This document shows, one piece after another, positions 5,361 through 62,988 of a stretch of DNA of 64,000 nt (positions are counted from its first letter, which is position 1; every line of letters starts with the position of its first letter). The notes under the pieces are model-generated. The model was not told where the DNA came from. It ran no database searches and saw nothing but the letters and a program-made list of their open reading frames with translations. This stretch comes from a virus (Duplodnaviria > Heunggongvirae > Uroviricota > Caudoviricetes), in IMG/VR virus record IMGVR_UViG_3300033076_001232, positions 1 through 64,000 of that record; one strand, written 5' to 3'. Made by a program: the position numbers and the translations under genes.

Positions 5361-6239
5361 ATGGACAGTTATTTAGTGTGGCATATAGAGGGAGGTTTAG
5401 GTAAAAATGTTGCTGCAACGTCCCTAATAGAAACTCTTCACGGAAGGTACCCTGACAGAAAAATTATTATAGTGGCTTCTTATCCGGATGTATTCGTTAA
5501 CCATAAACTAATATATCGGGTTTATAGTGTTGGAAATACCCCATATTTCTATGATGACTATATTAGAGATAAGGATACCCTCGTTTTTAGACACGAAGCA
5601 TATTACGAGAGCAATCACATATCCAAAAGAAAACATATTATTGAGAGTTGGTGTAAATTAATGGATCTGGAGTATAAAAATCAGAGTCCAGTAATTAATT
5701 TCAATCTTGTCCAGCAGAGGAGTGCACAAAAATGGATTAGAGAAAATCCGATTCTGTTGATCCAAACTAACGGAGGACCTATGAATTCGGAAAATGCTTA
5801 TTCGTGGACCAGAGATATCCCATTTGATATTTCTTTGAAAATAGCGGACAAATTCAGAAGTACCCATCATATAATACAAGTATGCAAGCCCACTTCTAGA
5901 CAAATCCCAGGAGCGGAAATAATTAGTGACCCGTTATCTCCATTGGATCTTTTTTTATTGCTTGCTCTTTCTGAGAAAAGAGTTCTTATCGATTCGTGTC
6001 TCCAACATGCTGCGACAGCTTTAAATCTTAAATCTACTGTTTTATGGATAGGTACTTCTCCCGTTAATTTCGGGTATCCGTTTCATAAAAATATAATTGC
6101 AAACCCGCCAGAGACTCAACCTAAGCTAATAAATTCATATCTTTTTGATTATTCGTTCGATGGAATAGCTTACGAATGCCCATATTATAGTACGGATGAG
6201 ATTTTTAATGTAGATGACATAATAAAATCAATCGAATAG
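5361..6239 (+). CDS. Glycosyltransferase, GT9 (heptosyltransferase)-like GT-B fold
   Basis: N-terminal GGLGK..AA...L...YPDRKIIIV and C-terminal IDSCLQHAATALNLKSTVLW resemble GT9 motifs. Confidence 0.72.
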   Translation: MDSYLVWHIEGGLGKNVAATSLIETLHGRYPDRKIIIVASYPDVFVNHKLIYRVYSVGNTPYFYDDYIRDKDTLVFRHEAYYESNHISKRKHIIESWCKLMDLEYKNQSPVINFNLVQQRSAQKWIRENPILLIQTNGGPMNSENAYSWTRDIPFDISLKIADKFRSTHHIIQVCKPTSRQIPGAEIISDPLSPLDLFLLLALSEKRVLIDSCLQHAATALNLKSTVLWIGTSPVNFGYPFHKNIIANPPETQPKLINSYLFDYSFDGIAYECPYYSTDEIFNVDDIIKSIE

Positions 6240-6266
6240 AAACTTTAGCATACCAGGAATCTAAAA
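6239..6266 (+). promoter_or_regulatory. Class II (putative middle, ECF-type) promoter GAAAC-N18-TANAA
   Basis: GAAAC tttagcataccaggaatc TAAAA; the same motif lies upstream of seven other genes. Confidence 0.6.
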
Positions 6267-6279
6267 AAAATAAAAACAA

Positions 6280-6555
6280 ATGGAAGAATCAGTAAAATTA
6301 CCAGAAGAATTAGTACTAGAAGTTCAAGCTCTTAAGGATGAACTTATGGACAATGTTATTAAAGTTGGAAGATTAAGCGTACAGAAATCTTTTTACGAGA
6401 AAGATCTTGAAATGATTAATACACAGCTTTCTGAGCTTCATGACCAAGCAGCTCTAATTTACCAGAAGGAAGAGGATTTACAACAAAGAGTGATCTCCCA
6501 ATATGGCAATGGAAAATTAGATTTCGAAAGCGGAATCTTTACTAAAACGAAATAA
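6280..6555 (+). CDS. Small coiled-coil hypothetical protein
   Basis: 91-aa helical ORF with A-rich leader, ending YGNGKLDFESGIF. Confidence 0.75.
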   Translation: MEESVKLPEELVLEVQALKDELMDNVIKVGRLSVQKSFYEKDLEMINTQLSELHDQAALIYQKEEDLQQRVISQYGNGKLDFESGIFTKTK

Positions 6556-6613
6556 TCTAAACCTCCTAAACCTCATTCTGTAGATAGACTTGTTATTCCT
6601 TAATTTTTTTAAG

Positions 6614-6621
6614 GATATATA
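6614..6621 (+). promoter_or_regulatory. Class III (putative late) promoter GATATATA
   Basis: Octamer recurring shortly upstream of structural genes; analogous to the T4 late promoter TATAAATA. Confidence 0.7.
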
Positions 6622-6641
6622 CAAAAAGTACTTACTACAGA

Positions 6642-11791: not shown

Positions 11792-11799
11792 GATATATA
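11792..11799 (+). promoter_or_regulatory. Class III late promoter GATATATA
   Basis: Upstream of the sheath ATG at 11828. Confidence 0.7.
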
Positions 11800-11827: not shown

Positions 11828-14800
11828 ATGGCAAATAAGGTAAAAATAGACTATTCTCAGTTTAGAGCATCCGGAGTCTACACCCTGGAGTTTGACGCGT
11901 CACAAAACGTGATCTTAACTTCACAGACAATTCGTCTAGTTGTAGGGTTTTCTAACAAGGGTCCATTCAACACACCAGTTTATATCCCGGACGTAACTAC
12001 TCTAATTTCTATTTTTGGCGACATCGATAGATCATTAGAAAACAAGGGATCTTTTTTCCAAAGATCCATATTAACATGTTTGAATGCAGGCCCAGTGTTT
12101 GCTTTAAACCTTTTAAGACTTAATGACGATTTGGAGTCAGCTAATCCGGATGAGGTAGACTATCAGGCATATTCACTTGATACCGAGGAATATAATGGTG
12201 TAGTAACAAGTAAGTTATATTCATCATACTATAACAAGGAAAGATTCTGGTTCGCAGATCCTAATTATTTCCTTGCAACTCTTAGCGTTGCAGATCAGGG
12301 TAAATTATTTAGCTTGGTTAATTTAGGTAAATCCCCGATGAGTATCATTACTAGAAAATCGACGGATTCGTCAAAACCACTTAAGGGTTATGATATCTTT
12401 GCTATAGATTGGTATGGAGCAGATAACGTTCCTAGCTTTATGCACCCTTATGATTACATGTCCGATTATTTCATTGACGTAATCGCTGTCTATGGAGATT
12501 GGACAAACTATCAAGCTCTCTCCATTGATCCTAAGTGGAGTACTTACTTTACTGAAAACGGGTTCATTAAAAGCCGTATAGACAACTTTTTAGCTGAACC
12601 TGATGTTTCCATTGTTACTTCTGTTACAGGCTGTATTATACCAGATTTCGTTGATTTAAATGGTGTTAATCAATACATCCAAACACTCATAAACAATAGC
12701 ACACCTTCTACGGGATTATTCTGTGCTATAGACGAACAATCATTTGATGATATCTGTGCTAATGGATCTAAAATAGATCTTGTTGGTAATCACCTTATTG
12801 ACGAATTAACAGGAGACAGTGATTTACCGAGTCCGAGAATTAATTTCTTAAGTTACGATCAGGTTCTAGTAGCTGACTACTTATACAGTCAAAATGTAGT
12901 AGGTGTTACTGGAGCAACAGGATTTGTAAGTGCAACCGGAGCAACAGTTTATACAGCTGGTGCTAAAGTAGGTACTCTCTACACGTTAACCGGAGTTACT
13001 GGAGCAACCGCAGGTATTGTTTATCAATCTTTTGCAGCTTATGATCCTGCTTCTTTCGACGGAGGTCTTCACTATCTACAAACTTCAGGAACCGGTGGAA
13101 CTGCAGGGTATATTCAAACAGCAGCACAGAAGAATGAATTAAAAACTTTCTTGACAGTAAATTCTTCTAATGATCAGAAGTTTATCCTTGGTGTCGTATC
13201 TGGTTACACTGGTGGTTTAACTGGTGCATTGGTTAACCAATTCTCCGAAGGTGACTTAGTTAAATTAAAAGTAACTGGAACTAAAGATGTTAGCGGGGAA
13301 TTAAGAATATTCTTTACTCACCCTCTAGATACTGGTTTCTACAGATCTCAAGGTATTACAGTAACGCCAACTTATAATCTTACTTCTTATAATACTGGTG
13401 CTTCTGGAAGTAATCAACCTTTCTACACTAATGCTTACCAATTTGGTAACTCTGATTATGTTGATATAGTTAGTACAGCTACACCTGGTGGTGTAACTGG
13501 TCCAAATGCTCCACTTGGGGTTTCTAACGTACTAGTAGGATATAATGCTTCAGAATTATACCAAGATAATAAATATGCTAACATTGCAGATGGTGATATC
13601 ATATGGCTTAACGATACCGGATCAAGTGTTCAATATCTAGGATTCGAAGAAACAGTTGACCGTGATCAATTTAACTTTGTTAATACCAGAGCGTTTACCA
13701 ATGTTTCTTTAGCAGACACTACAATAACCAATATAACCGGATTCGGTACAGCTTATGCTTCTAATAACGTTGGTTTACCTGTATCTACTCAGGCTATTGA
13801 TATAGTTTCTCAAGAGGGATCAATAAATGAATTTGTTGATTGTACTAAGATAGACGTAACAACTTTCCTAGTAACTCAAGATGTTAATGGAAACGCTCCT
13901 TTCTCTGTTGGTGATTTGGTAGTTTCTACTGATTTAGACATATGCGATCCTGCAACAGGAAATAGACAAAATAGATTAGCTAAAATTACTACAGTTTCTG
14001 CAACTACTACAGCTGGAACTTATAGAGTTACTTCTGCAAGACCGGTTCTTTATTATACTGCAGGATCTGGTGTAAGAGTTCAGAAATTTAAATCTATAGC
14101 TCAATTCACAAGATCATTTGACTTCACTTACCTAAGTGGATTTACAATGACCGAATGGCATAGACCAAATGGAAGCGATGCTAGAATATCCGAGATATTG
14201 GATGTTATGTACAATACTAATATTGCAAAAACCCTAGCAGCTAAGGACGTTATATCTTACCGATATATCGTAGATACTTTCTCCGGTCAGATCTTACCTA
14301 ATACTAAGTACCAGCTTTCTAGGTTGGCTAAATTAAGACAACAAGCTTTAGCTATCATTAATGCTCCTTCAATGGCTCAATTTAGAGCTAGCACTGATCC
14401 TAGATTTACTGATGCACCTACTGCAGCTAATCCTTATCCAAGATTAAATACGGCTTATATTGCAGACGGCGGTAACTTATCTTTAAATCCAACATACACA
14501 TTTAGCTTACCTACTGAAGATGATGGTGCTAAATATGCGGCATTCTATTCTCCTTATATTACTGTAAGAGAGTCAAATAGAAACGTCGAGGTTCCACCAG
14601 CAGCTTATGTTTCTAATAACTTCCTTAGAAAGTTTGCTAACGGAGAACCTTATGCGATTATAGCAGGTCAAAAAAGAGGGGTTATAAGTGGAGGAAACAT
14701 CGTAGGTGTTGAATATGACTTTACTGAAGAAGATAGAGGAAATCTAGAACCTTTTGGAATTAACCCAATTATAAAAAGAAGAGGAATTGGAGTGGTTATC

Positions 14801-15178
14801 TTCGGTAACCAAACTGCTTATCAGCAGGTTAATTCCGCATTCAACTTGGTTCACGTAAGAGACTTATTAATTAGCGTAGAGAATGACGTACAAGAAATTC
14901 TTGCTAACTACTTATTTGACTTTAACGAGGATTCAATTCGTCTAGAAATTAAAACATTAGTAGATAATTACTTAGATGGAGTTAGAGCCGGTGGAGGTAT
15001 TTACGCATACCAAACAATCATGGACGCTTCTAACAACACTCCAGCAATTATCGATATGAATATGGGTATTATCGATGTTATCATCGAACCAGCAAGAGGA
15101 ATTCAGAAGTTCATTAACAGAATTACAGTTACTAGAACAGGTGGAATCGCTTCTGGAGGATTTATCCAATTCGTATAA
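11828..15178 (+). CDS. Contractile tail sheath protein (gp18-like) with large insertion
   Basis: SGVYTLEFD..., GFSNKGPFNTP, VPPAAYV, AGQKRG, GINPI, FGNQT, VRDLL, FDFN motifs. Confidence 0.93.
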   Translation: MANKVKIDYSQFRASGVYTLEFDASQNVILTSQTIRLVVGFSNKGPFNTPVYIPDVTTLISIFGDIDRSLENKGSFFQRSILTCLNAGPVFALNLLRLNDDLESANPDEVDYQAYSLDTEEYNGVVTSKLYSSYYNKERFWFADPNYFLATLSVADQGKLFSLVNLGKSPMSIITRKSTDSSKPLKGYDIFAIDWYGADNVPSFMHPYDYMSDYFIDVIAVYGDWTNYQALSIDPKWSTYFTENGFIKSRIDNFLAEPDVSIVTSVTGCIIPDFVDLNGVNQYIQTLINNSTPSTGLFCAIDEQSFDDICANGSKIDLVGNHLIDELTGDSDLPSPRINFLSYDQVLVADYLYSQNVVGVTGATGFVSATGATVYTAGAKVGTLYTLTGVTGATAGIVYQSFAAYDPASFDGGLHYLQTSGTGGTAGYIQTAAQKNELKTFLTVNSSNDQKFILGVVSGYTGGLTGALVNQFSEGDLVKLKVTGTKDVSGELRIFFTHPLDTGFYRSQGITVTPTYNLTSYNTGASGSNQPFYTNAYQFGNSDYVDIVSTATPGGVTGPNAPLGVSNVLVGYNASELYQDNKYANIADGDIIWLNDTGSSVQYLGFEETVDRDQFNFVNTRAFTNVSLADTTITNITGFGTAYASNNVGLPVSTQAIDIVSQEGSINEFVDCTKIDVTTFLVTQDVNGNAPFSVGDLVVSTDLDICDPATGNRQNRLAKITTVSATTTAGTYRVTSARPVLYYTAGSGVRVQKFKSIAQFTRSFDFTYLSGFTMTEWHRPNGSDARISEILDVMYNTNIAKTLAAKDVISYRYIVDTFSGQILPNTKYQLSRLAKLRQQALAIINAPSMAQFRASTDPRFTDAPTAANPYPRLNTAYIADGGNLSLNPTYTFSLPTEDDGAKYAAFYSPYITVRESNRNVEVPPAAYVSNNFLRKFANGEPYAIIAGQKRGVISGGNIVGVEYDFTEEDRGNLEPFGINPIIKRRGIGVVIFGNQTAYQQVNSAFNLVHVRDLLISVENDVQEILANYLFDFNEDSIRLEIKTLVDNYLDGVRAGGGIYAYQTIMDASNNTPAIIDMNMGIIDVIIEPARGIQKFINRITVTRTGGIASGGFIQFV

Positions 15179-15200: not shown

Positions 15201-15208
15201 GATAAATA
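15201..15208 (+). promoter_or_regulatory. Class III late promoter variant GATAAATA
   Basis: Immediately upstream of tail tube 1. Confidence 0.6.
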
Positions 15209-15217
15209 TAACTAATT

Positions 15218-15772
15218 ATGGCAGGATTATCTCACTTTTCGAATTCATTATCAGCAGTAAACAAGTTTGAACCTGTTTACCTGAATCAATTTGAAGTTAC
15301 TATCATCCCACCAGCAGCTGTTGCTGGCGGTGAGATACTACTTCAACACGTTTCCAAAGTAAGTGGACTTTCTTTGGATAAAAACCCGGGATTGGCAACT
15401 CAGAAATTTAAGTTTGCTAAGAGGAACTACGCAGGTGCTAAACCTGACCAGACATTTATGGATTTAAGTGTCAGCTTCTCCGTAAACTTAAATGATGACA
15501 ATTCGATGTATGTGTTTAAAACACTAAGACAGTGGTCGGATCTGATCTACAATCCTCTTACTGGTGCAATGGGTCTTAAAAATGATTACGTTGGAACTAT
15601 CGTAGTCAACATCTTCAATAAACAAGGTGACGTCTTTAGAAGAATCACTTGTAAAGATTGTTTCCTTACTAAGCCAATTTCACCAATGAACCTAAACTAC
15701 ACTTCAACAGATCTTTACAAGATTGATGATATGGTATGGGCGGTTGATTATTGGGAGGATTTGTTCCTATAA
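15218..15772 (+). CDS. Tail tube protein, copy 1 (gp19-like)
   Basis: Follows the sheath; NQFEV, YAG, LRQWSDLIYNPLTG, DYW pattern. Confidence 0.85.
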   Translation: MAGLSHFSNSLSAVNKFEPVYLNQFEVTIIPPAAVAGGEILLQHVSKVSGLSLDKNPGLATQKFKFAKRNYAGAKPDQTFMDLSVSFSVNLNDDNSMYVFKTLRQWSDLIYNPLTGAMGLKNDYVGTIVVNIFNKQGDVFRRITCKDCFLTKPISPMNLNYTSTDLYKIDDMVWAVDYWEDLFL

Positions 15773-19291: not shown

Positions 19292-19325
19292 AATTTTTTT
19301 TTCTCTAAGTGAATAGTTACATTTG
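19292..19325 (+). promoter_or_regulatory. Class I (putative early, host sigma) promoter: AATTTTTT ... TAnnTTTG
   Basis: TACATTTG at 19318 (repeated at 19332) matches the Bacteroidota -7 element; AATTTTTT starts 26 nt before it. Confidence 0.65.
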
Positions 19326-19353
19326 GTAAACTACATTTGGAGAGCATTTTTAT

Positions 19354-19920
19354 ATGGGCAAAGAAAACAATATTAAAGAGCTAGTCTTTAGTGATACCTC
19401 TTTTTTAACGGATGAATTTTTTGGACTATCTAATTGGAAGATTGTGAAAAAACTAGATGAACATGAAAAAATTTCATTTAGGGTATTTACTTCTGATGAT
19501 TCTGATCTTATAATTAATCATAGAAGTGATAAGATCTATTTAGAAATGGCACAAATCTGGGGAAAAAATTCATACTGTGAGAGAAAAAAAGTTGGATGCT
19601 TAATTGTCAATAACAGAGCTATAATTTCGGATGGCTACAATGGGTCACCTACTGGATTTCCTAATAAGTGTGAGGTAGATGATGTTACTTTACCTTATGT
19701 CCTCCATGCGGAAGCTAATGCCATAACTAAATTAGCAAGAGGGACACAAAGTTCCGACGGATCCGTTCTTTATGTTACGTTATCTCCTTGCTATGAATGT
19801 TCAAAACTTATCATACAATCTGGTATAAAAAGAGTGGTTTTTAATCAGATTTACAGAAAAATGGAATCAATATCCTTTCTTGCTGAGGCAGGAATTGAGA
19901 TAATAAAAATAAATATTTAA
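19354..19920 (+). CDS. dCMP deaminase
   Basis: KVGC, GYNG, HAEANAI and TLSPCYEC zinc motifs; has an N-terminal extension. Confidence 0.92.
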   Translation: MGKENNIKELVFSDTSFLTDEFFGLSNWKIVKKLDEHEKISFRVFTSDDSDLIINHRSDKIYLEMAQIWGKNSYCERKKVGCLIVNNRAIISDGYNGSPTGFPNKCEVDDVTLPYVLHAEANAITKLARGTQSSDGSVLYVTLSPCYECSKLIIQSGIKRVVFNQIYRKMESISFLAEAGIEIIKINI

Positions 19921-20558: not shown

Positions 20559-20984
20559 ATGTTCAGGATCATTAAAGTAATAAAGGAGATAAGACTCTAC
20601 CGGGAATATTCCAGGATAGTAAGAAAAGAAGAGGCAGAGTCACAAATTTGGAGAAGAAGAAATTTAAGGAGAGATAGACTTAATCGAATCTATACGGTAG
20701 TGAATTTACCTCTTCAGGTTTTAGCTTCTGTTGATTTACCAAGAGAATCTAGACCTTCTTTTGTAATTCAGGAATTAAAACCAATAAACGAGTATCTTAA
20801 GTCTCTTAATATAGAGGAGATCATAACAATGTGGATAGAACCGGTTAAAGGTACAGACGAGGAATCTTATCTGGTCGTCTATCAGTTTTTGTTTAGATAT
20901 TTATCTTGGCTTTGGATACTTAGATTACTTTTAGAACTCTCAGTTATCTCCGTATTAGCATACTATTTTTTATTCTATAAATAA
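20559..20984 (+). CDS. Hypothetical protein with C-terminal transmembrane helix
   Basis: Hydrophobic C-terminus; class II motif at 20518 (17-nt spacer). Confidence 0.7.
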   Translation: MFRIIKVIKEIRLYREYSRIVRKEEAESQIWRRRNLRRDRLNRIYTVVNLPLQVLASVDLPRESRPSFVIQELKPINEYLKSLNIEEIITMWIEPVKGTDEESYLVVYQFLFRYLSWLWILRLLLELSVISVLAYYFLFYK

Positions 20985-20992: not shown

Positions 20993-21796
20993 ATGTCAGA
21001 TGGGTTAATCCAAGCTAAAAAGAGAGAAATAGAGGAGAAGCTAAAATTTTACGAGGATTCAAATTTTACCTTTCACGAGGAATCACATGTTTATAGATAT
21101 AGCGGGGTTAAATTCGATTCGGTTACAACCTTCCTTAAAGTTTTTAAAGTCCCATTCGATAGGGAATATTGGTCAAAGAAAAAGGCTGAAGAAAGAGGTG
21201 TTGATGTATCTGTAATTTTAAACGAATGGGAAACCAAGGGTGACATATCGAGAACTCTTGGTACCAACGTTCATAAATTCATAGAAGATTTTTGGATGGG
21301 TAAAAATCCGGAGATTCCAGAAGATCCGGATGTTAGAAAAAGGGTTATGGATTTTCTTGATGTCTACAATAAGAGACTACATATATTAACCCCTCTTAAA
21401 TCGGAGCTAAAAATATTCTCTAGAAAATGGAGATTAGCAGGAACTATAGATCAGCCCCTTTTATTATGGGATGCTAAATCTGAGAAGGTCTACTTAATCA
21501 TAGGTGACTGGAAAACCAATGGTGAATTCAAAAGTGACAATCATCCGAAAGGAAGATTTAAGAAACTACTAAGACCCTTTAATAACCTTTATGAAAATGA
21601 TCACAACGAGTATTCTATTCAGATAAGCCTATATAGATTGATCTTAGAGGAAATTGGAATAGAAACAGAGAGTGGATTTCTTTTACATTTAGGTCCGGAA
21701 GATACCAGAATATACCCGGCTAAAGATCTTAGAGAACCTCTAAGAGCTTATTTGGATCAAAATAGAGTAGATTTCGATATTTTTAAAATAGATTAG
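20993..21796 (+). CDS. PD-(D/E)XK (RecB-like) exonuclease
   Basis: SVTT, GTNVH, LAGTID, IGDWKT and QISLY motifs. Confidence 0.85.
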   Translation: MSDGLIQAKKREIEEKLKFYEDSNFTFHEESHVYRYSGVKFDSVTTFLKVFKVPFDREYWSKKKAEERGVDVSVILNEWETKGDISRTLGTNVHKFIEDFWMGKNPEIPEDPDVRKRVMDFLDVYNKRLHILTPLKSELKIFSRKWRLAGTIDQPLLLWDAKSEKVYLIIGDWKTNGEFKSDNHPKGRFKKLLRPFNNLYENDHNEYSIQISLYRLILEEIGIETESGFLLHLGPEDTRIYPAKDLREPLRAYLDQNRVDFDIFKID

Positions 21797-21842
21797 AAAC
21801 AAAACAGTAAAAGATAACTAAAAATAAAAAAAAATAAGAAAA

Positions 21843-22379
21843 ATGACAAAGAAAAAATCAGAAGAAATGCCAAACAACCACGTAGAAATGCCAGGTGGAT
21901 CTTCAGTAGTAGACTTTGAAACTACTCAGGGAGCATTTGAATCTAACGTTGTAGTTGATTCAGAACTTGTTGATAGCATTCAGAATCAGATTCAAGAAAA
22001 GAAGGAAGAGATTAAGAGTAAGGTTTATGCAGTAACTTGCTCAGATTCACTGTTTTCTGAATATGAGACATTCATGAGAGAAAAAGCAGAATGGAATTCT
22101 ACAGAGGCTCTAGGGGTCGTTGAAATTAACAAGCAAATTGCTAGAATTAAAAAGGATGGAATTAAGGATGGAGTTATCTACCTTGGTGCACTTCCTTTAG
22201 AGGCTAGCCACTATTTTCTTTCAAAATCTAAAGGAGTAGGTGTAGAAAGTGCTGAAGCTTTTATCAAATTGTATAAGGCTTTCGATCAGGCATTAAATGA
22301 TGCTAAGCAAGATGCTGCATCAATTAAAGATCTAGAAAAACAATTAGCTGCTGCAATGCAGGGCATTACCTTAGGATAA
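21843..22379 (+). CDS. Hypothetical helical protein
   Basis: ORF with A-rich leader, class II promoter at 21796 and a downstream terminator. Confidence 0.75.
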   Translation: MTKKKSEEMPNNHVEMPGGSSVVDFETTQGAFESNVVVDSELVDSIQNQIQEKKEEIKSKVYAVTCSDSLFSEYETFMREKAEWNSTEALGVVEINKQIARIKKDGIKDGVIYLGALPLEASHYFLSKSKGVGVESAEAFIKLYKAFDQALNDAKQDAASIKDLEKQLAAAMQGITLG

Positions 22380-22392: not shown

Positions 22393-22428
22393 AAAAAAGG
22401 CTAGCTTTTCAAAAGGCTAGCTTTTTTT
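22393..22428 (+). terminator. Intrinsic terminator
   Basis: aaaaaaggctagc-ttttcaaaag-gctagc-ttttttt. Confidence 0.75.
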
Positions 22429-22476
22429 GTATGCTGAAGTTTAGAAATAGATATATAGACAGTAAACTATTAAATT

Positions 22477-24555: not shown

Positions 24556-24633
24556 AACCATTGAGCGATTAAATATATACTGTAAAAGTTTTGTATTCTG
24601 TTTGGATATATAATTCGAAAAAAAAATTTAACT

Positions 24634-27001: not shown

Positions 27002-27040
27002 AGGAGAATGTAGCTTCATAAGAGGCTACATTCTTTTTTT
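27002..27040 (+). terminator. Intrinsic terminator
   Basis: agaatgtagc-ttcataagag-gctacattct-tttttt. Confidence 0.85.
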
Positions 27041-27068
27041 GAAATCTTTTTCTGTTTTGATGGTAGAA
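27041..27068 (+). promoter_or_regulatory. Class II promoter variant GAAAT-N18-TAGAA upstream of the late sigma gene
   Basis: Same spacing as the GAAAC-N18-TANAA sites. Confidence 0.55.
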
Positions 27069-27104: not shown

Positions 27105-27464
27105 ATGGCTAAAGACTATGTAAAAAACAGTGACTTGATGGCTGCTGTAGTGGAATCCAAGAATAAGGGTGAGCTAACTCCGGAAACCATAGAGATGTTT
27201 CATTTAATGATTCAAGGGATTTCAAAGAAGATGTCATATAAGGATCCGGAAGATAAAGAGGACTGTATGGCCTTTGCCATGGAGGATCTATGCAAATATT
27301 GGAACAGATTTAATCCGGAAAAATCAAACAATCCTTTTGCCTATTTCACTCAAATAGCTAAAAATGGATTCGCTAAGGGATGGAAAAAGCTTCATCCACC
27401 AAAGAGTCCAAGAACTATACCTTTTAGTTATATTACTGGGGAGGACAATACATATAACGTGTAA
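27105..27464 (+). CDS. Late-transcription sigma factor (T4 gp55-like), compact
   Basis: YVKNSDL and FNPEKSNNPFAYFTQI, the gp55 signature. Confidence 0.88.
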   Translation: MAKDYVKNSDLMAAVVESKNKGELTPETIEMFHLMIQGISKKMSYKDPEDKEDCMAFAMEDLCKYWNRFNPEKSNNPFAYFTQIAKNGFAKGWKKLHPPKSPRTIPFSYITGEDNTYNV

Positions 27465-27960: not shown

Positions 27961-28550
27961 GTTTTAGAGATCGGGTCTTAGAGTACAAGAATAAAACAGA
28001 GGGATCAAAGAATATCTTTAAAGAGACCGATGATTATTTTGTGAATGAATATTTCAAAAACAATAAGAGATTTTTAATCCCTCCAGTTTTGCCAAATCTC
28101 GGTGAAATATACTATTTCAACTACTCTACGGATAGCAAAATAACTAAGGATAGAAAATTCATTAATAGATTACCCGTTGTTTTATGTACAGATTTTTTCG
28201 AATCTAACAATTTCAGGATACTTAAAGGAATTGATTTAATAACAGTTCCTCCGAAATACCGGATGGAGATATTATCAAAAGTATATGATACCTTTATAAA
28301 TTCTACCGGAGATATGGAATCGATTGATAATCAGAAAATAAGTGTAAATCTAAAGGATGACATTTTAAGTAAGTTATTGTCAGGAACTGGGTATAAAAAT
28401 TCCCTCTTTGGTTTTAAAACCAATTTTATCAAAAACATTGGTGTTATTAAGTACTCCGATTGGGATAAACTACCATACTTGACTGTCAATGTGTTAGAAG
28501 GCTTGAGAATACAGGGGATATATAGTGAATATGAATCGAAATTAAAATAA
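27957..28550 (+). CDS. DNA end protector (T4 gp2-like)
   Basis: GEIYYFNY...NRLPVVL...GIDLITVPPKYR resembles gp2; adjacent to gp4. Confidence 0.55.
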   Translation: MSFRDRVLEYKNKTEGSKNIFKETDDYFVNEYFKNNKRFLIPPVLPNLGEIYYFNYSTDSKITKDRKFINRLPVVLCTDFFESNNFRILKGIDLITVPPKYRMEILSKVYDTFINSTGDMESIDNQKISVNLKDDILSKLLSGTGYKNSLFGFKTNFIKNIGVIKYSDWDKLPYLTVNVLEGLRIQGIYSEYESKLK

Positions 28551-31880: not shown

Positions 31881-31912
31881 TTTTTTATTCCCGGGAGTTT
31901 TTGGTATTTTTA
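31879..31912 (+). promoter_or_regulatory. Class I promoter variant (AATTTTTT ... TATTTTTA)
   Basis: Same 26-nt offset as the other class I sites, with one mismatch to TAnnTTTG. Confidence 0.5.
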
Positions 31913-31925: not shown

Positions 31926-33257
31926 ATGAGAAAAGAACTCCAATTATTCAAAGACCTCGAATCCTTAACAGGAGAGGGATCACAAAAAGCCAAGCAAAAG
32001 ATAATATCGGAAAATCAGGACGACCGATTTTTGTATCTTCTGGACGTATGTTTCAATCCGTTTGTAACAACGAAGCTCCATAAGATATCTTTTAATGAGA
32101 CTTTATCCGAAATGAATCCTAACATATGGCAGGAATTCAATGGTCTCGTAGAGGAGCTAAAAACAGCCCCAGCGGCAAACGATTCACTCAGGAGAAGAGC
32201 TCAAGACTTAGTTTCCTATAGAATATCAGATGATGATTCGGAGGATCTCCAATTAAGGGAAATTTTAATGAAGATCATCACCAAAAGGATGAATATCGGG
32301 ATTGGAGCTAAACTAATCAATAAAGCTGTTGGTAGGGAATTAATACCAGATCCTTCTTTAATGCTTGCTACTGACGATCATTCTACTATTGAAAAATGGG
32401 AAACCATATACTGTGAAGAAAAATATGATGGTGTTAGAGTTATTGCACTATGGAAAGAAAATAAGTTTTCCTATTTCACTAGAGCTTTCAATGAATTGGA
32501 CTCGTCATGCTTTCCAAGAACATCTGAATATTTAAAATTAGCGATAGAAAAATCAGGTATTTCCGGTGAAATTTTCTTTGATGGTGAATTAACGGATCTG
32601 AACAGGAAATCAGTAAGTGGAAAGGTAACACAAATACTGAAAGGAAAGGTTGATTCCAGTATAGAGAATGGTATGATATTTAATGTTTTCGATTTAGAAG
32701 ATGCTACAACTTTAATCACAGGTAAGGGAAAAATTAAATACAAGGATAGAAGGAATTTACTTGAAAAAGTATTGGGACATCTACCTGACGAATCGAATGT
32801 TACCCTGGCCCAAATGTGGGAGATAGGGTCTTCCTCCGATATAACTCCAATCTACAAAAAAATAGTAGATCAGGGAGGCGAAGGAGTGATTTGCAAGGAT
32901 AACGAAGTTTATGAATGCAAGAGATCTAAATCTTGGGTAAAATTCAAAGAAGTTAATGATTGCGATCTTTTAGTTACTGGATGGTATCCAGGAGAGGGAA
33001 AAAGAGAGGGGTTAATAGGTGGATTTATTCTGACTGATCTTTCTTCTACCCTTAATGTTAGAGTTGGAGCTGGATTCACTGATCTGGACTTGAAAACTCT
33101 CAGTGAAGATCCAGATTCCCATATAGGAAAGGTCGTTGCGGTTCAATATAACGTGGTGATTACGGATAAACACGGGAATCGATCTTTATTTCTCCCAAGG
33201 TTCATCGAGGTACGTAATGACAAAAGTACTCCCGATGATCTTTCCTCATTATTTTAG
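31926..33257 (+). CDS. lig: ATP-dependent DNA ligase
   Basis: EEKYDGVR (KxDG), FDGEL, EGVICK, WVKFK, VGAGF, LFLPRF. Confidence 0.95.
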   Translation: MRKELQLFKDLESLTGEGSQKAKQKIISENQDDRFLYLLDVCFNPFVTTKLHKISFNETLSEMNPNIWQEFNGLVEELKTAPAANDSLRRRAQDLVSYRISDDDSEDLQLREILMKIITKRMNIGIGAKLINKAVGRELIPDPSLMLATDDHSTIEKWETIYCEEKYDGVRVIALWKENKFSYFTRAFNELDSSCFPRTSEYLKLAIEKSGISGEIFFDGELTDLNRKSVSGKVTQILKGKVDSSIENGMIFNVFDLEDATTLITGKGKIKYKDRRNLLEKVLGHLPDESNVTLAQMWEIGSSSDITPIYKKIVDQGGEGVICKDNEVYECKRSKSWVKFKEVNDCDLLVTGWYPGEGKREGLIGGFILTDLSSTLNVRVGAGFTDLDLKTLSEDPDSHIGKVVAVQYNVVITDKHGNRSLFLPRFIEVRNDKSTPDDLSSLF

Positions 33258-33284
33258 AAACACTTTATAAGCATCACAGTAAAA
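33257..33284 (+). promoter_or_regulatory. Class II promoter GAAAC-N18-TAAAA
   Basis: Upstream of the clamp-loader operon. Confidence 0.6.
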
Positions 33285-36891: not shown

Positions 36892-37360
36892 ATCTATAAA
36901 CGAGTATTTTGACGCTGGTGCTTTCGGTGACACTTACGGATATGGCGGAGCTAATGGGGTTCTTAAAATAAACTATAAACCATTTAACGACCTTTCAGTT
37001 TCAGTTGGACCTGACCCTAACGTAGAAAGAACGGTCAAGGGATCTGAATTTCAATTAGGAGATGTTGTTATAGCCCAACCTTTGGATTCTAAGGATAAGG
37101 TAATAGGTGTTATCGTAAGATCATTTAGAAATCCTGACAATCAAGAATATAGATATTTTATTCAGGTCTACAATAGAGGAAAGAAAACCGAAAGAGTGAT
37201 AGAGGTTAAATCTGATTCTATAAAGTTCGCAGAAGGTGGGGATCACGGTAATATGGAGACCAAATCCAATTACAAAAACAACGATATACCTAGTTCTGCG
37301 TTTAACTCCAAAACCGTATACAATTCAAGCGAACTTGGGTTGGAAACAACGGGAGGATAG
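36878..37360 (+). CDS. Hypothetical late protein with CTS-like N-terminus and SH3-like core
   Basis: MKYIKSINEYF; FQLGDVV..VIGVIV..YFIQV; GATACATA at 36865. Confidence 0.7.
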   Translation: MKYIKSINEYFDAGAFGDTYGYGGANGVLKINYKPFNDLSVSVGPDPNVERTVKGSEFQLGDVVIAQPLDSKDKVIGVIVRSFRNPDNQEYRYFIQVYNRGKKTERVIEVKSDSIKFAEGGDHGNMETKSNYKNNDIPSSAFNSKTVYNSSELGLETTGG

Positions 37361-37396
37361 AAACTTAAACTCTTATTTTGGGTACAATAGATAAAA

Positions 37397-38296: not shown

Positions 38297-38328
38297 TTTT
38301 TTTATCCTGTGTTTTTATATTATCTTTG
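38295..38328 (+). promoter_or_regulatory. Class I promoter (AATTTTTT ... TATCTTTG)
   Basis: Bacteroidota -7 element ending 5 nt before the ATG at 38333. Confidence 0.65.
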
Positions 38329-38332: not shown

Positions 38333-39034
38333 ATGTTTAAAATTGAATTAATTAAGAAGTACCTCTACTTTGATGTTGAGACGGCTACTGGATGTGAATC
38401 CTATGAAATCTTGGTCGAGAAGAATCCCCGATTAGCCTCACTCTGGGAAAAAAGATGTAAATATTATAAATCTACATTTCCCGAATTATCTGATGCTTCT
38501 ATATCAGAAATATACGATCAAAAGGCTCCGTTAGAACCTGAATTTGCTAGAGTTGTTTGTGTTTCTTTTGGTTCATTTGATGAGGATAATATGGAGAGAT
38601 TTATTTCATTCTCCGGTCCTGACGAGGTTGATATCTTGAATAAAGCGAATAAGGTTCTAAATAATGCCTTTGCTAAAAACTGGAAATTGTGCGGTCATAA
38701 TATCAAAGCATTCGATGTACCATGTTTAGGTAAGAGAATGTTATACAATTCGATAAATCCATCTGGAAATATCCAAATATGGGATAAGAAGCCTTGGGAA
38801 ATTCCTTACGTTGATACCTCTGAAGTTTTTTCTTTCGGTAGCTGGGTTCAACAGAAATACCTAAGTCTTGATCTAGTTTCTTGCATGCTTGATGCAGAGT
38901 CTCCTAAAATTTCTATGGATGGATCTCAGGTAAGCAGTTTTTTCTGGAAGGATCAGGATTACACCAAGATTGGTGAATATTGCGAGAATGATGTTAGGAC
39001 AGTGATGGAGATCATGAAAAAGTCCTGTTTCTAG
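38333..39034 (+). CDS. DEDD 3'-5' exonuclease (PolB-exonuclease-like)
   Basis: FDVET, GHNIKAFDVP, YCENDV. Confidence 0.88.
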   Translation: MFKIELIKKYLYFDVETATGCESYEILVEKNPRLASLWEKRCKYYKSTFPELSDASISEIYDQKAPLEPEFARVVCVSFGSFDEDNMERFISFSGPDEVDILNKANKVLNNAFAKNWKLCGHNIKAFDVPCLGKRMLYNSINPSGNIQIWDKKPWEIPYVDTSEVFSFGSWVQQKYLSLDLVSCMLDAESPKISMDGSQVSSFFWKDQDYTKIGEYCENDVRTVMEIMKKSCF

Positions 39035-39059: not shown

Positions 39060-39096
39060 AAAGCTTTTCTTTGATATATAGAGAAAAGCTTTTTTT
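39060..39096 (+). terminator. Hairpin/terminator with the late promoter GATATATA (39073-39080) in its loop
   Basis: aaagcttttct-ttgatatatag-agaaaagcttt-tttt, followed directly by the GTG start. Confidence 0.7.
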
Positions 39097-42602: not shown

Positions 42603-42670
42603 TCTTCAGAATGTTAAAAAATATCTGAATGATTGTTGATATATAAATGACATAAAAAAGAAAAATAAAA

Positions 42671-44710: not shown

Positions 44711-46411
44711 ATGAAACTGATTAACGAACAAGAAATCTATGATACCTGGTCTCCGATTATCGAGAGCAAAGCTGGTATCACAGATGAAAACAAAAAAGGT
44801 TGGTTGACTAAATACTGTCACTACCACTCATTAAATGAGTCTGCTGGAGCTTATAACACTTTAGGTGTTGTAAACGGTATGGGTAACGTTGCTCCCCCAG
44901 CATTCCCTGGTGCTACTATTGGTGGTACTTCTTTCTCAACAGGCGCTAACGCTGGTTTCTACAACACAGCATGGCAAGGATCTGGAGATAAATTCCCTTC
45001 ACTTCTTCCGTTGGCTATTCAAGTAGCTGCGAAGACTGTAGGTTTTGATATCGTTCCAGTTATCCCTATGTCTGGTCCTACTGGTATCTTGTCTTACTTA
45101 GACTATGTATACGCAGGTGGTAAAGTTGCAGGTGCTACTTCTGCTGTATCTGGAGACAGTTTAGCAAAAGCTCCTTCAATGATTAAATTCCCAGTTGCTC
45201 AAGGATCTGCTGCAGGTCTTACTGGTGCTACTGCTGGAACATTTACTGTAGGTACTGCTTATACCATTACAAATGGTGGAGTTCTTACATTAAGATTTGT
45301 TGGTCTTTCAAGAATCGATGGTTTCCCAATCTTCGAAATTGAAAACATCACAGACGGTTATAACGTAGCTGGTATCATCGCTTCTCCTTTTGGACAAAAC
45401 GTTGTTACTTCTACAATGTACACTTCTGGTTCTGCTCAGTTAGTTAAAGGTCTTGAAGATCACATCCAAGGATTCTCTGGTGCTGGTTTCAACAACACAG
45501 ACGACTGGCAAGGTCCTTACGTAGATGGTACTAAGACTTACAATCCAATGTTAAGAGGTGTTGCTGAGTCTACTTACTACAACTCAATGGGTCTATCGAC
45601 TTTCACTAAGTTCGTAGAAGCTGAGACTTTCCAAGTTGCTGCTTCTGTTACAACTGAGCAAATCCAAGATCTTAACAAACAATTCGGTATCGACGTTATC
45701 TCAATGATCGAGAACGCATTGGTTAATGAGGTTTCTCAGTCTATTAACAAGCACATCCTTTCAAGAGCATTCGCTCTAGGTTGGTCTAACCACATCCAAT
45801 TCAACTCAGTTGAAAACCAAAACTTGAACTTGAACTTGGTTATCGGTGGTGGTTCTGGTACTACTTCAGCTTACGTTAAGAAAGATGATACTACTGGATC
45901 TATGGCTATCCCTGCAGGTCCTGCATCAGGTGGTTATGAGAACTTGTCAACTCTACAAAGAAGACTATTCTCAAGAATCCTTGCAGCTGCTAATGTAGTA
46001 GCTAACAGAGGTCGTAGAGGTCCTGCTAACTTCATCGTTACTAACGCTGCAGTAGCAAGTGCACTTCAAGATATCTCTCAGTTCACTTTCGCACCTTTCT
46101 CTAACACGTTGACTCAAAACAACGGTACTTTATACCCTGTAGGTTCACTTGCTGGTATGACCGTTTACGTAGATCAGAACATGAGATACGACGATACACG
46201 TGTATGTATTGGTAGAAAAGGTGGTGATGATGAGCCAGGATTGAAATTCATGCCTTACATGATGGCTGAGTCAATTCAGACTATCTCTGAAGGTACAATG
46301 TCACCTAAAATCGCGGTTAAATCAAGATACGCTCTAGTTGAAGCTGGTTTCTTACCAGAGACTATGTACTTGACATTCTATGTTAATGTACCTGCTGGAG
46401 GTTTAGCTTAA
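44711..46411 (+). CDS. Major capsid protein (T4 gp23-like)
   Basis: WSPIIE, VIPMSGPTG, EQIQDL, EVSQSINK, RRGPANFIV, FMPY, PKIAVKSRYAL; strongly biased codon usage. Confidence 0.95.
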   Translation: MKLINEQEIYDTWSPIIESKAGITDENKKGWLTKYCHYHSLNESAGAYNTLGVVNGMGNVAPPAFPGATIGGTSFSTGANAGFYNTAWQGSGDKFPSLLPLAIQVAAKTVGFDIVPVIPMSGPTGILSYLDYVYAGGKVAGATSAVSGDSLAKAPSMIKFPVAQGSAAGLTGATAGTFTVGTAYTITNGGVLTLRFVGLSRIDGFPIFEIENITDGYNVAGIIASPFGQNVVTSTMYTSGSAQLVKGLEDHIQGFSGAGFNNTDDWQGPYVDGTKTYNPMLRGVAESTYYNSMGLSTFTKFVEAETFQVAASVTTEQIQDLNKQFGIDVISMIENALVNEVSQSINKHILSRAFALGWSNHIQFNSVENQNLNLNLVIGGGSGTTSAYVKKDDTTGSMAIPAGPASGGYENLSTLQRRLFSRILAAANVVANRGRRGPANFIVTNAAVASALQDISQFTFAPFSNTLTQNNGTLYPVGSLAGMTVYVDQNMRYDDTRVCIGRKGGDDEPGLKFMPYMMAESIQTISEGTMSPKIAVKSRYALVEAGFLPETMYLTFYVNVPAGGLA

Positions 46412-46434: not shown

Positions 46435-46464
46435 AAAACCCTAGGCTCAGCCTAGGGTTTTTTT
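46435..46464 (+). terminator. Intrinsic terminator after the MCP gene
   Basis: aaaaccctaggc-tca-gcctagggttttttt. Confidence 0.9.
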
Positions 46465-46507
46465 GTTTACTTGGGATATATAGAGAGTAGAAAAGTAAAA
46501 TTTTAAT

Positions 46508-51323: not shown

Positions 51324-51355
51324 TTTTTTAATCCCGATACCTATTATTATATTTG
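51322..51355 (+). promoter_or_regulatory. Class I promoter (AATTTTTT ... TATATTTG)
   Basis: 26-nt offset; upstream of the kinase-AsnB pair. Confidence 0.65.
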
Positions 51356-53375: not shown

Positions 53376-53424
53376 ATTAGATTACATTTTTAGGATAGAT
53401 ATATAGTAAAAATAAAATCCTGAA

Positions 53425-54454: not shown

Positions 54455-54484
54455 AAAAAAGGATCCTTATGGGATCCTTTTTTT
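54455..54484. terminator. Bidirectional intrinsic terminator
   Basis: aaaaaaggatcc-ttatg-ggatcc-ttttttt between convergent genes. Confidence 0.88.
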
Positions 54485-55205
54485 ATGATATCCGTTCTAT
54501 GAATTTTTCCTTAGCTATCTTAAGTATCTCGGAGTTTTCGTTATAATTTTCATAAATCTCTATAACATATAATTCTGGAGATTTTTTTCTTTCTGAAGAT
54601 TCCCCCTCCAAAATTTCGTGGTAGATATATTCGTAATTAATGGAGAACATTTTGTTCTTTAGATAGATCCGTTTCATAATACATACCTCCTTATCACCTT
54701 CCTGGGTTTTGAGGATAACTGATCCCTGCCATTTATAAGCTTCTATTGCATCAGTTACCATATTTCTAATGATAAGTATACCAGAGTTAGTTTTTTCTGG
54801 TTTAATTAGGGTATCTGGTTCTACCTTAAAGATTTTTATTTTTGACTCCTCTTCTTTTAAGATCTCTAGACAAACCTCCGAATAATCGTAGAGCGTATGT
54901 AGAGAATTTTCAACTATCTCCTCCAACACAGAGGCTGTTTGTTTATCTAATGATTTAAAATCAAAGGATGCCAAATATTCTCTATCCTCCTTTTTTAAAC
55001 CCTTTACTATGGAGCTACCTATAGTTTTTGTTTCCTTGAAGTCGTTTAGAATTTTAACAAGTCTAGAGATCTCCTTTAATACGGAGTATGACGTTTTAGC
55101 ATTTAGCTTTTTTGTTAAAGCTTTTAGGTAATCTAATAAAATATATTCCTTGTGTTCAGAATCTATTGGATCCTTTATGAACCATAATGGGTTAATGTTC
55201 TTCAT
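54483..55205 (-). CDS. Hypothetical protein; the only credible minus-strand gene
   Basis: 240-aa ORF filling a gap with no + strand gene; AATATATA on the minus strand at 55233-55240. Confidence 0.8.
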   Translation of the reverse strand: MKNINPLWFIKDPIDSEHKEYILLDYLKALTKKLNAKTSYSVLKEISRLVKILNDFKETKTIGSSIVKGLKKEDREYLASFDFKSLDKQTASVLEEIVENSLHTLYDYSEVCLEILKEEESKIKIFKVEPDTLIKPEKTNSGILIIRNMVTDAIEAYKWQGSVILKTQEGDKEVCIMKRIYLKNKMFSINYEYIYHEILEGESSERKKSPELYVIEIYENYNENSEILKIAKEKFIERIS

Positions 55206-55286
55206 CTTTTTAAAATTGTGAAGTGATCCATGTATATATTGAAACTTTAAAAATCATTTCTGGATATATAGACTAAAAAGAATAAA

Positions 55287-56694: not shown

Positions 56695-56731
56695 TTAAGA
56701 AACATTTTAATTTACTTCGGATACAATAAAT

Positions 56732-57016
56732 ATGGATCTGAGTGAGGACTTTTCACTAAATTATAACGAAATCCTTTATATGGCAAAGCCTAAAGGATTT
56801 ACCGTGATTGAGGTTTGTAGACACGCTGATCCGATATTAGATAACATAGTAGAGGTGTGGCAATACGATAAGAGAAAAAACGGATCTAAATCAAAGGGGG
56901 ATTCCAGCTGGATTATATTAAAAGATCTCTACAATCATCTAAGATATTACAAGTCATTGGGATTTACTTCTATCTCTCTGGAAACAAAAGATGGAAAAAA
57001 ATCTAAAAAGAAATAA
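56732..57016 (+). CDS. Hypothetical protein
   Basis: Class II promoter at 56699; start uncertain. Confidence 0.6.
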   Translation: MDLSEDFSLNYNEILYMAKPKGFTVIEVCRHADPILDNIVEVWQYDKRKNGSKSKGDSSWIILKDLYNHLRYYKSLGFTSISLETKDGKKSKKK

Positions 57017-60789: not shown

Positions 60790-60801
60790 AAATCGTAAGA
60801 T

Positions 60802-61392
60802 ATGGGACTTTTACTTATAGATACCTTAAAAAATAACAAATCGATATTCAATCCCCAATCAGGACTTGATTCCAGTAAATATGGAATATGGGATCTGACT
60901 AAGTCTTCCATCACTTATGATAATTTGAATATTCAAGTGGAAGATTTCTTTTTTGTTAAAGAATCCTATCAGATGAGACCTGATCTTATAGCAGCGATCA
61001 AATTAGGAGATCAATCTAAAGTAGGATCATTATTAAAATTAAACGGTATTAGCAATCCTTTTGCTGTGGCTGAGGGAAGATTTATGCTTATTCCTAGCGG
61101 GGCTACAGTAGAAAGATCTTTTGATGTTAAGAAAATAAAAAATCAGGCTTCATCATCTTCGAATACAAATACTAATCCTAATGAGGCATTTAGAAAAAAT
61201 CAGGAACAGAAGAAATTCAAGGTTTCTGATGGTAGGAAGAAGTTCTTAGAGAGTAAAGTTAAGAAACAACCTGAAATGATTTTACCCCCTAATGTAATGC
61301 AGCCTAGTCAGAGAACGATACTTAAAAAAGATGGATTCTTAATATTCGCACCCGATGCTGGTGGTGGAGGATCTAATAAACCAGTTAACTAA
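60802..61392 (+). CDS. Baseplate wedge protein (gp53/LysM-like)
   Basis: RPDLIA...LLKLNGISNPF....G..MLIP. Confidence 0.72.
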   Translation: MGLLLIDTLKNNKSIFNPQSGLDSSKYGIWDLTKSSITYDNLNIQVEDFFFVKESYQMRPDLIAAIKLGDQSKVGSLLKLNGISNPFAVAEGRFMLIPSGATVERSFDVKKIKNQASSSSNTNTNPNEAFRKNQEQKKFKVSDGRKKFLESKVKKQPEMILPPNVMQPSQRTILKKDGFLIFAPDAGGGGSNKPVN

Positions 61393-61399
61393 AAGATAA

Positions 61400-62953
61400 A
61401 TGTTAGCAGATTCAACTAAAATAGTAGGTATTGCTCTAAACAATATGAAGCTGGATGAATTAATCCAGAATGATAGAGCAAACGGTTCTAACAATCCGGA
61501 TTTACAAAGAGAACTTGGTGCTGGTCAGGATAAATCAACCGGACTAAATTCCCCGTTTATGACCATAAATGGATATAGTGTTTCCAAATATCTGGATTCA
61601 TTTTCTTTAGATCTTAGTGGATTCCTTCCGGTTATTAGATTCTCTTTTTCCCCTGCTGAAACTGTTTTTATATCCGTAAACTATCCTAAAGACGGCGACA
61701 TTGTATCTGTTTATATGAGAGCACCAGGAGATATCTATAACCCTATGAGGATGGATTTTAAGGTTCTGAGTGTTTCTGGTGATGTCTCCAGTAAATATTC
61801 ACCAAAGGGATCTGATCCAAATGGAACATTTTTTAGATTCCATATTGTTGCTGAAGCATATATCCCCGGATTATATTCACCAAAAATAAAATCATTTGGA
61901 AGATCGAATTCTGCAGATGTTCTATTAGAGGTTTCCCAGGATTTGAATCTTGGGTTTGCTACTAATGAAAAAACGACAAATGATACGATGAGGTGGTTAT
62001 GTCCAAACTACTCATATTATGATTTCATCCAGGAGGTTTGTTTAAGAGCTTATAAGGATGATGAACAGAGTTTCTTTGACTGTTGGATAGATCCATATTA
62101 TAATCTTAACTTCGTAAATATGGGTAGTCAATTTGCATTTGACGGAGATCCTAAACAGGAAGTCTTAATAGTACCTGGATATACTAATGCCGGATTAAAG
62201 GTCGATTCTGCTATACCAGGTACACCATCACCCGAACCATCTAAAGTACCTCTAGTTTTGACTAATGCTATAGGAGCTGGCGTGGTTCCCTTCTTTATTA
62301 ATGGATATACATTAACTTCTAGAGCAGGTAACAGTACAAATGAATATGGTTATATAACTGAGGTTGGTTTTTATGACGAAGAAGCTGAAGAAGCTGAAGC
62401 ATCTGGAAAATATGTAAAATATGACATCGAAACTCAGACCACAGATAATGTAAAACCAGGAGCTATTCTACAAAAAGGTAGAGCAAGGGATAATGAATAT
62501 AAAAATGAAACCAGAAGAGAATGGTTTGGTGTTTTGAATTATTTTCCTGATATCGACGACGGTGTGCACCAAAACTATTACCATGCTACTGTCCAGAATA
62601 CTATAAATCTTAGTGATGTCTCCAAGATGACACTGGAAGTTGAAATAACAGCTTATTTTCCGGGAATTATCAGAGGTATGGTCATTCCTGTTTCAATATA
62701 TGTTTTTGATGCTGGAATGAGACAACAGAACGTCGGGAATCTTTCTAATAAAGACAAGAATACCGGAATGAATCCAACTATAGATAATTTTCTTTCCGGT
62801 AACTATGTTGTAACTGGAATGGAGGTTTATTGGTCTAAATTTTCAGGAGGAATGAAGCAGAGGTTAACATTATCTAAAAGAACATGGACAGCTAATTCTT
62901 CTGGAACTATTCCTAAAGCTTTCCCCATATCCATACAAACTGGACAATTCTAG
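61400..62953 (+). CDS. Putative baseplate hub protein (gp27/gpD-like)
   Basis: Follows the gp53-like gene; C-terminal LEVEI..YFPGIIRG...FLSGNYVVTGM...QRLTLSKR. Confidence 0.55.
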   Translation: MLADSTKIVGIALNNMKLDELIQNDRANGSNNPDLQRELGAGQDKSTGLNSPFMTINGYSVSKYLDSFSLDLSGFLPVIRFSFSPAETVFISVNYPKDGDIVSVYMRAPGDIYNPMRMDFKVLSVSGDVSSKYSPKGSDPNGTFFRFHIVAEAYIPGLYSPKIKSFGRSNSADVLLEVSQDLNLGFATNEKTTNDTMRWLCPNYSYYDFIQEVCLRAYKDDEQSFFDCWIDPYYNLNFVNMGSQFAFDGDPKQEVLIVPGYTNAGLKVDSAIPGTPSPEPSKVPLVLTNAIGAGVVPFFINGYTLTSRAGNSTNEYGYITEVGFYDEEAEEAEASGKYVKYDIETQTTDNVKPGAILQKGRARDNEYKNETRREWFGVLNYFPDIDDGVHQNYYHATVQNTINLSDVSKMTLEVEITAYFPGIIRGMVIPVSIYVFDAGMRQQNVGNLSNKDKNTGMNPTIDNFLSGNYVVTGMEVYWSKFSGGMKQRLTLSKRTWTANSSGTIPKAFPISIQTGQF

Positions 62954-62988
62954 AGATTTGGATAAATAGATAAAATAAAGAGAACCTT

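Follow-up and report, generated by a model that had tools for sequence, protein, structure and literature searches.

Two phage transcription programmes come close to the one discussed here. In SPO1, host sigma-A gives way to gp28, and gp28 to gp33/gp34, in a cascade that defines early, middle and late promoter classes; in T4, early genes are read with sigma-70, middle genes with the help of MotA and AsiA, and late genes with gp55, gp33 and gp45 on the octamer TATAAATA. In this article, I will discuss a further arrangement, predicted from the sequence of an uncultured tailed virus (IMG/VR record IMGVR_UViG_3300033076_001232), a contig of 250,353 bp estimated to be 92% complete, whose first 64 kb form the stretch analysed here (the window). 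I propose that in this phage the host core RNA polymerase probably passes through a three-step relay of sigmas, for which I infer both the assignment of each sigma to a promoter class and the temporal order. Early in infection, the host housekeeping sigma would read class I promoters ahead of nucleotide-metabolism and nucleic-acid enzymes and of a phage sigma factor of the extracytoplasmic function (ECF) type; this ECF sigma would in turn read class II promoters (GAAAC, 17-18 nucleotides (nt), (C/G)TAnAA) ahead of the clamp loader, nucleases and a short gp55-type sigma, whose gene would be insulated from upstream transcription by a terminator; and the gp55-type sigma would finally read class III promoters, -10-type elements of the form (G/A)ATATATA without a -35, ahead of the virion genes.

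Related phages have been described by others. In T4-related jumbo phages, including the Prevotella Lak phages and Tenacibaculum phage PTm1, a minimal sigma is encoded along with gp33 and, in some cases, a second sigma that is more complete and of cellular type; this complete sigma is RpoD-like in that description, which gives no promoters, wiring or cascade (Iyer et al., 2021; PMC7824862). Freshwater 'moraphages' of Flavobacteriia have a sigma factor among their core genes according to a 2025 paper, which holds no promoter analysis. Searching the literature for gp55 together with an ECF sigma, for TAnnTTTG in phages and for the named relatives with a sigma factor returned no description of this relay.

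The window has about 35% G+C, carries nearly all of its genes on the + strand, and encodes a T4-superfamily gene set consisting of a gp44-like clamp loader, a head-completion gene, a DNA end protector, two portal paralogues, tail sheath, tail tube, prohead protease and major head protein. A megablast search with 20 kb against GenBank phages gave no match, leaving nothing close at the DNA level, and by protein the nearest named relatives are the Prevotella Lak megaphages, huge uncultured phages, and phages of Chryseobacterium and Tenacibaculum. A Shine-Dalgarno-like core is found ahead of only 15 of 312 genes, and A makes up 50% of the 20 nt upstream of start codons; since scarce Shine-Dalgarno cores and A-rich leaders fit a Bacteroidota-type host, the sequence fits an uncultured, T4-related phage of such bacteria.

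Two sigma genes and three promoter classes

Searching the contig with Sigma70_r2, r4_2, r4 and the sigma of Chryseobacterium phage MA9V-1 for a third phage sigma returned only the ECF-type and gp55-like genes, and because these two are the only sigma-family genes in the contig, the three promoter classes match three sigmas, the host's included. The first of them, which follows a deoxycytidylate (dCMP) deaminase gene in one operon, is the sole full sigma by the Sigma70_r2, r4_2 and r4 searches. Its 199 amino acids (aa) accommodate regions 2 and 4, with PF04542 and PF08281 both above their cut-offs, and it scores 72.9 bits with the ECF superfamily model TIGR02937, whose cut-off is 42.9, while staying below the cut-off of every subfamily and equivalog model, the best being TIGR02985 (77 versus 126 bits).

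The second gene matches phrog_234, the PHROG named 'late sigma transcription factor', and its product matches Sigma70_r2 above the cut-off (26.7 bits) and aligns to residues 9-112 of T4 gp55 at 29% identity (29-32% over 9-113). An earlier reading of this DNA from the letters alone (the sequence-only reading) had called the protein gp55-like, and the homology stands; what it missed is that the protein is a short form, with 119 aa against the 185 aa of T4 gp55, in which the C-terminal third is not present and the alignment stops at T4 residue 112. In T4, the C-terminal part of gp55 carries the clamp-binding tail. The short form is the norm among relatives, with residues 1-119 matched in nearly all of the 80 listed, and the homologue in phage LR756500 is a 124-aa form. 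The possibility that the gene is cut by a frameshift into the overlapping open reading frame (ORF) at 27364 was considered and rejected, since the 119-aa form matches full length in relatives and the head-completion domain of the next ORF starts only at residue 50 of that ORF.

Promoter motifs were counted on the sense strand, at positions -80 to -1, for 313 genes called by a simple ORF selector, a zone that makes up 5% of the two-strand sequence space, with shuffled upstream regions, the reverse complement and altered spacings as controls. All three classes lie where the sequence-only reading had placed them, and genome-wide they occur far above chance.

For class III, GATATATA ranks first, 25-fold enriched, in a k-mer screen of intergenic DNA made without a preset motif. 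This octamer has 37 of its 45 genome copies in the examined zone (shuffled mean 2.3, maximum 7; reverse complement 5), and the window copies are on the + strand in 13 of 13 cases. Across 235 distinct instances of (G/A)ATATATA there is no conserved block in the 30 nt upstream and no -35-like element, and the octamer resembles the T4 late octamer; it is on this similarity of a -10-only element, together with the homology of the protein, that the proposed link of gp55 to class III is based. That structural genes would be preceded by class III had been predicted, and is borne out for the neck, sheath, tube, protease/capsid and portal genes. Over the whole genome, the distance from the octamer to the ATG falls in two clusters, 4-5 nt and mostly 15-30 nt. 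As a separate observation, sense-strand copies of GATATATA also occur inside coding regions at 43297 (within the protease gene), 39833 and 57411, where they possibly act as late promoters within genes.

Class I is a rigid composite of a T-run, (A)TYCCG, exactly 11 nt and TAnnTTT(G/A), as read at 16 sites. The composite has 34 start positions in the examined zone against 0.1 in shuffles, a count inflated by the fact that each overlapping T-run start was counted; when sites are counted instead, 16 of 22 stand no more than 60 nt from a start codon. I take TAnnTTTG to be the Bacteroidota housekeeping-type -7 box, whose consensus has a -33 TTTG about 19 nt upstream. All class I sites have the -7 box, with G or A at its last position, and have a T-run rather than TTTG at the -33 position; since the Flavobacterium consensus would put a -33 element 19 nt 5' of the -7 box, within this T-run, class I can be read as a near-consensus host-type promoter. 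Both in this genome (e.g., 31881-31912 and 51324-51355) and in relatives, almost all class I sites have a conserved YCCG exactly 11 nt 5' of the -7 box; ahead of the sigma operon, CTCT takes its place. To my knowledge, a fixed YCCG-N11 is no part of the Bacteroidota promoter consensus, and it is thus an extra element beyond that consensus. The class I motif of the sequence-only reading is present in the genome but lacked this fixed element.

Class II has a two-block form, GAAAC-N18-TAnAA, and 13 of its 18 genome copies lie in the examined zone, against a shuffled mean of 0.4. Spacings of N15-17 and N19-21 yield 0-2 copies each and the reverse complement yields 0, so that the exact N18 fits a two-block promoter. 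The 18-nt spacing described earlier holds for the class generally, but not for the site at 20518, which has N17. Promoters of ECF sigmas have an AAC-containing -35, TGAAAC being the -35 of Bacillus subtilis SigW, and class II shows the general shape of such promoters, with an AAC-containing upstream block followed by a 17-18 nt spacer. I link the ECF sigma to class II indirectly, by this ECF-like two-block form with its AAC block, by the presence of SigW models among the best subfamily matches of the protein, by a downstream block unlike the host -7 box, by the count of two phage sigmas for three classes and by the wiring of the genes.

It is exceedingly improbable that class II is no promoter and rather acts as a signal in the RNA or at the start of translation, or simply arises from a TAG-AAAC stop context combined with A-rich leaders. 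Such an origin would explain why four class II sites in the window begin on the G of a TAG stop codon, why the downstream block is A-rich like all leaders, and why some sites end 5-6 nt from the ATG. It would not account for a strict N18 between two blocks when the spacer between them is without conservation. Upstream of gp55 in relatives, several positions of the spacer carry almost no information, the others being moderately biased towards T. Nor would it fit the gp55 site, which follows a terminator and not a stop codon and lies 20-51 nt from the ATG in relatives, with one at 91 nt.

It is unlikely, too, that the reader of class II is the housekeeping sigma of the host, steered there by a phage activator that has escaped recognition and for which GAAAC would be the box, with the ECF sigma left to serve a few phage or host genes. 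The -35 of T4 middle promoters is replaced by just such an activator box at about -30, and many proteins of the present phage are without an assigned function. However, T4 middle promoters keep the host -10, whereas the class II TAnAA is not the host -7 box TAnnTTTG, and because of this difference in the -10-like block a different sigma, rather than the host sigma with an activator, is favoured for class II. No AsiA or MotA homologue was found in the contig with PF09010 and PF09158 (MotA C-terminal domain), PF09114 not being part of that search. An activator would also leave the ECF sigma without a visible regulon: a fourth promoter class was sought among 53 unassigned upstream regions, in which nothing was enriched, and the residue consisted of degenerate forms of classes I-III. 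I infer that the ECF sigma is the reader of class II, and it would then take the place of MotA/AsiA in an otherwise T4-like programme.

The wiring of the two sigma genes agrees with the relay. It had been claimed that each sigma gene lies under the preceding class, and this is what is seen here and in relatives, with class I ahead of the dCMP deaminase and ECF sigma operon (19294-19339) and a class II-type site ahead of gp55. A class II site at 33257 precedes the clamp loader gene as described before; ahead of the gp55-like gene the element is there, but as GAAAT and not as the GAAAC first reported (27041-27068). By function, the genes fall broadly into early, middle and late sets according to their promoter class, with a few exceptions, among them a class II match inside a gene, with a baseplate-hub-like gene 48 nt 3', which is probably due to chance. 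Outside the window, class I sites precede genes for an HD hydrolase, an RNA ligase and a D5-like helix-turn-helix regulator, and class II sites precede those for a phrog_850 RNA-binding protein, a metallophosphoesterase and a thymidylate synthase-like protein.

Conservation of the wiring and points against the proposed relay

Relatives of each sigma are found at more than 200 loci in IMG/VR, on contigs of up to 434 kb, and they offer a view of the same arrangement in other genomes. Of 50 distinct upstream regions, nearly every one has the class I composite 5' of the deaminase and sigma operon. Most of 55 distinct loci, whose sigmas are 64-92% identical, share one layout relative to the sigma gene: class I some 620 nt 5' of it, class II near +587 (+584 to +659, corresponding to the N17 site at 20518 in the window) and again near +1885 (21796 in the window), and class III near +2530 (22450 in the window). 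GAAA[CT]-N18-TAnAA is present in 38 of 43 distinct gp55 upstream regions, usually right after a hairpin and T-run, as GAAAT in most and as GAAAC in one subgroup. Over 828 kb of relatives, the counts on the + and - strands are 159:2 for GATATATA, 115:3 for GAAAC-N18 and 137:14 for class I. Because the footprints of these sites are conserved in relatives, it is very unlikely that they arose by chance or as a mere effect of composition.

These genomes also bear on whether the reader of class II might be an ECF sigma of the host that infection induces, with the phage copy only boosting or mimicking it, which I hold to be quite improbable. A cellular origin of the phage gene is suggested by its best subfamily match, the Bacteroides ECF expansion family, which stays below its cut-off, as does SigW, also among the best matches. 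However, the phage sigma is retained together with the motif in all relatives sampled, at the 64-92% identity given above, and it is driven by an early host-type promoter, which makes sense if the phage protein is itself the reader.

More distant phages delimit how far the wiring can be followed. MA9V-1 encodes a 387-aa sigma annotated as RpoS and no ECF sigma, and none of the three motifs was found in 150 kb of its DNA, GAAAC-N18 being distributed 4:3 by strand; class II is therefore not generic to Bacteroidota phages, with MA9V-1 no clean control, as it is so distant that all three motifs differ. In LR756500, which has an ECF sigma of 28% and a gp55 of 49.5% identity, no recognisable versions of the motifs lie near either gene, and the wiring is so far not extendable to that phage.

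Several points weigh against the relay as proposed. The -10-like TAnAA of class II differs from the CGT-type -10 of many ECF sigmas, and the gp55 promoter, with GAAAT here and in most relatives, may be weak or form a separate subclass. Homologues of gp33 and gp45 were sought with T4 gp33, T4 gp45, PF02916 and PF09116 and gave no match, although these proteins diverge quickly and distant homologues could escape such searches; combined with the short gp55, this means that late initiation may differ from that of T4. No anti-sigma factor was recognised. The 141-aa predicted membrane protein encoded directly after the ECF sigma gene, with a hydrophobic C-terminus and a class II-type site 5' of its gene, matches nothing in Pfam, PHROGs or NCBIfam, and by its location, at the position expected of an anti-sigma, it could be a candidate for one. 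In several cases a class II or III element reaches to within 4-6 nt of the ATG, and such genes would be predicted to have leaderless mRNAs. Finally, 8% of the genome may be missing, and a further factor could be absent from the contig for that reason.

A much broader claim may be entertained as a tentative and rather doubtful one: that widespread uncultured phages of Bacteroidota, with genomes of 250-430 kb, use an ECF middle factor to feed a clamp-independent, minimal gp55, and so carry out late transcription without the coupling to replication through gp33/gp45, possibly with negative feedback by the 141-aa protein acting as an anti-sigma.

Promoters and neighbouring genes in the window

The sites assigned to the three classes in the window, and the genes on which the argument turns, are collected in the table below.

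Table 1. Predicted promoters, associated terminators and the sigma operon and gp55-like genes in the window (coordinates counted from its first nucleotide).
Feature	Position	Strand	Downstream gene or match
Class II site	6239..6266	+	91-aa gene at 6280
Class III site	6614..6621	+	neck/head-closure-like 829-aa gene
Class III site	11792..11799	+	tail sheath gene (11828-15178)
Class III variant GATAAATA	15201..15208	+	tail tube gene (15218-15772)
Class I promoter (T-run, CTCT, N11, TACATTTG; second TACATTTG at 19332-19339)	19294..19339	+	dCMP deaminase and sigma operon
dCMP deaminase gene, first of the operon	19354..19920	+	PF00383 at 1.8e-23
ECF-type (group 4) sigma factor, 199 aa	19928..20527	+	Sigma70_r2 1.2e-11, r4_2 7e-10
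Class II-type site, N17 spacing, spanning the sigma stop codon	20518..20544	+	141-aa gene (20559-20984), exonuclease (20993-21796)
Class II site	21796..21823	+	178-aa gene (21843-22379)
Terminator hairpin (22400-22428), then class III GATATATA (22450-22457)	22400..22457	+	5' of 22477
Class III site	24605..24612	+	746-aa gene
Terminator (27006-27040) abutting class II-type GAAAT-N18-TAGAA (27041-27068)	27006..27068	+	gp55-like gene, 36 nt 3'
gp55-like minimal late sigma, 119 aa	27105..27464	+	phrog_234 at 1.2e-15
Class III site	28517..28524	+	first portal gene, 47 nt 3'
Class I promoter	31881..31912	+	DNA ligase gene (31926-33257)
Class II site	33257..33284	+	gp44-like clamp loader gene (33291-34235)
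Class II site	37360..37387	+	299-aa endonuclease-like gene (37397-38296)
Class I promoter, CCTG variant	38297..38328	+	3'-5' exonuclease gene (38333-39034)
Class III site in the loop of hairpin 39063-39096 with T-run	39073..39080	+	directly 5' of GTG start at 39097
Class III site	42638..42645	+	prohead protease (42671-44692), major head protein (44711-46411)
Terminator (46439-46464), then class III site (46475-46482)	46439..46482	+	386-aa gene
Class I promoter	51324..51355	+	189-aa gene at 51395
Class III site	53398..53405	+	gene at 53425
Divergent class III pair: AATATATA on -, GATATATA on +	55233..55270	- and +	54483-55205 (-); 55287 (+)
Two class II sites, 56699-56726 and 56981-57008	56699..57008	+	genes at 56732 and 57019
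Class III variant GATAAATA	62961..62968	+	772-aa gene at 62989

A few further observations concern neighbouring genes. The 746-aa late gene (24634-26874) stops at a TAG, and a different frame continues without a stop from an A9 run (about 26826-26836) up to 26987 and would encode an acidic tail, the explanation being either a site of frameshifting or a sequencing error in the homopolymer. The two portal paralogues (28572-30251 and 30273-31880) are adjacent and diverged, and both match phrog_213 (5e-58 and 1.5e-66). Directly 3' of the gp44-like clamp loader gene lies a guanylate-kinase-like gene (34242-34757; phrog_1815, 5e-34), at the position that in T4 is held by the gene for the small clamp-loader subunit gp62. 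The window opens with a large ORF (1-2667) that has long Gly-Ser/Thr repeats, is collagen-like or fibre-like, and runs off the start of the contig. Farther along the genome, at 145863-146352, there is a phage transfer-messenger RNA gene with the tag peptide EEVELAVAA, and a class II site is next to it at genome position 146359.

Meaning of the proposed relay and its place among known systems

If the relay is true, the T4 superfamily has solved the switch to middle genes in at least two unrelated ways, by sigma appropriation in T4 and by a captured ECF sigma here, and a short gp55 suffices for the recognition of late promoters in hosts of the Bacteroidota, a phylum that departs from the E. coli model in its housekeeping sigma and its promoters. 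The three compact promoter types would also allow the genes of a large, uncultured and environmentally common phage family to be sorted by their predicted timing with nothing but the sequence at hand, and the phage sigma with its promoter, as an orthogonal pair, could be tried as a genetic tool in Flavobacteria and Bacteroides.

Among T4-like phages, the cyanophages share a matching gp55 homologue; neither MotA/AsiA nor a second phage sigma is known in them, and their middle-type genes are expressed by other means, whereas the phage described here has a dedicated ECF sigma with its own promoter class. The Group 2 jumbo phages sometimes have two kinds of sigma (Iyer et al., 2021; PMC7824862), as does this phage, which is set apart by the ECF type of its fuller sigma and by the proposed promoter relay. 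With T4 itself it shares the T4-type virion and replication genes, a gp55 homologue and a single -10-type late octamer related to that of T4 and without a -35; it differs in that an ECF sigma is present, AsiA/MotA are undetected, gp55 is short and the late consensus is GATATATA. The likeness to SPO1 is one of logic, in that the host core polymerase would be handed along a chain of sigmas and each phage sigma gene stands behind a promoter of the preceding class, while the proteins and the host phylum are others, with an ECF-type middle and a gp55-type late factor in a member of the T4 superfamily. In short, the logic of the proposed relay is that of the SPO1 cascade and its late step is that of T4, and the ECF sigma would stand at the place of MotA/AsiA.

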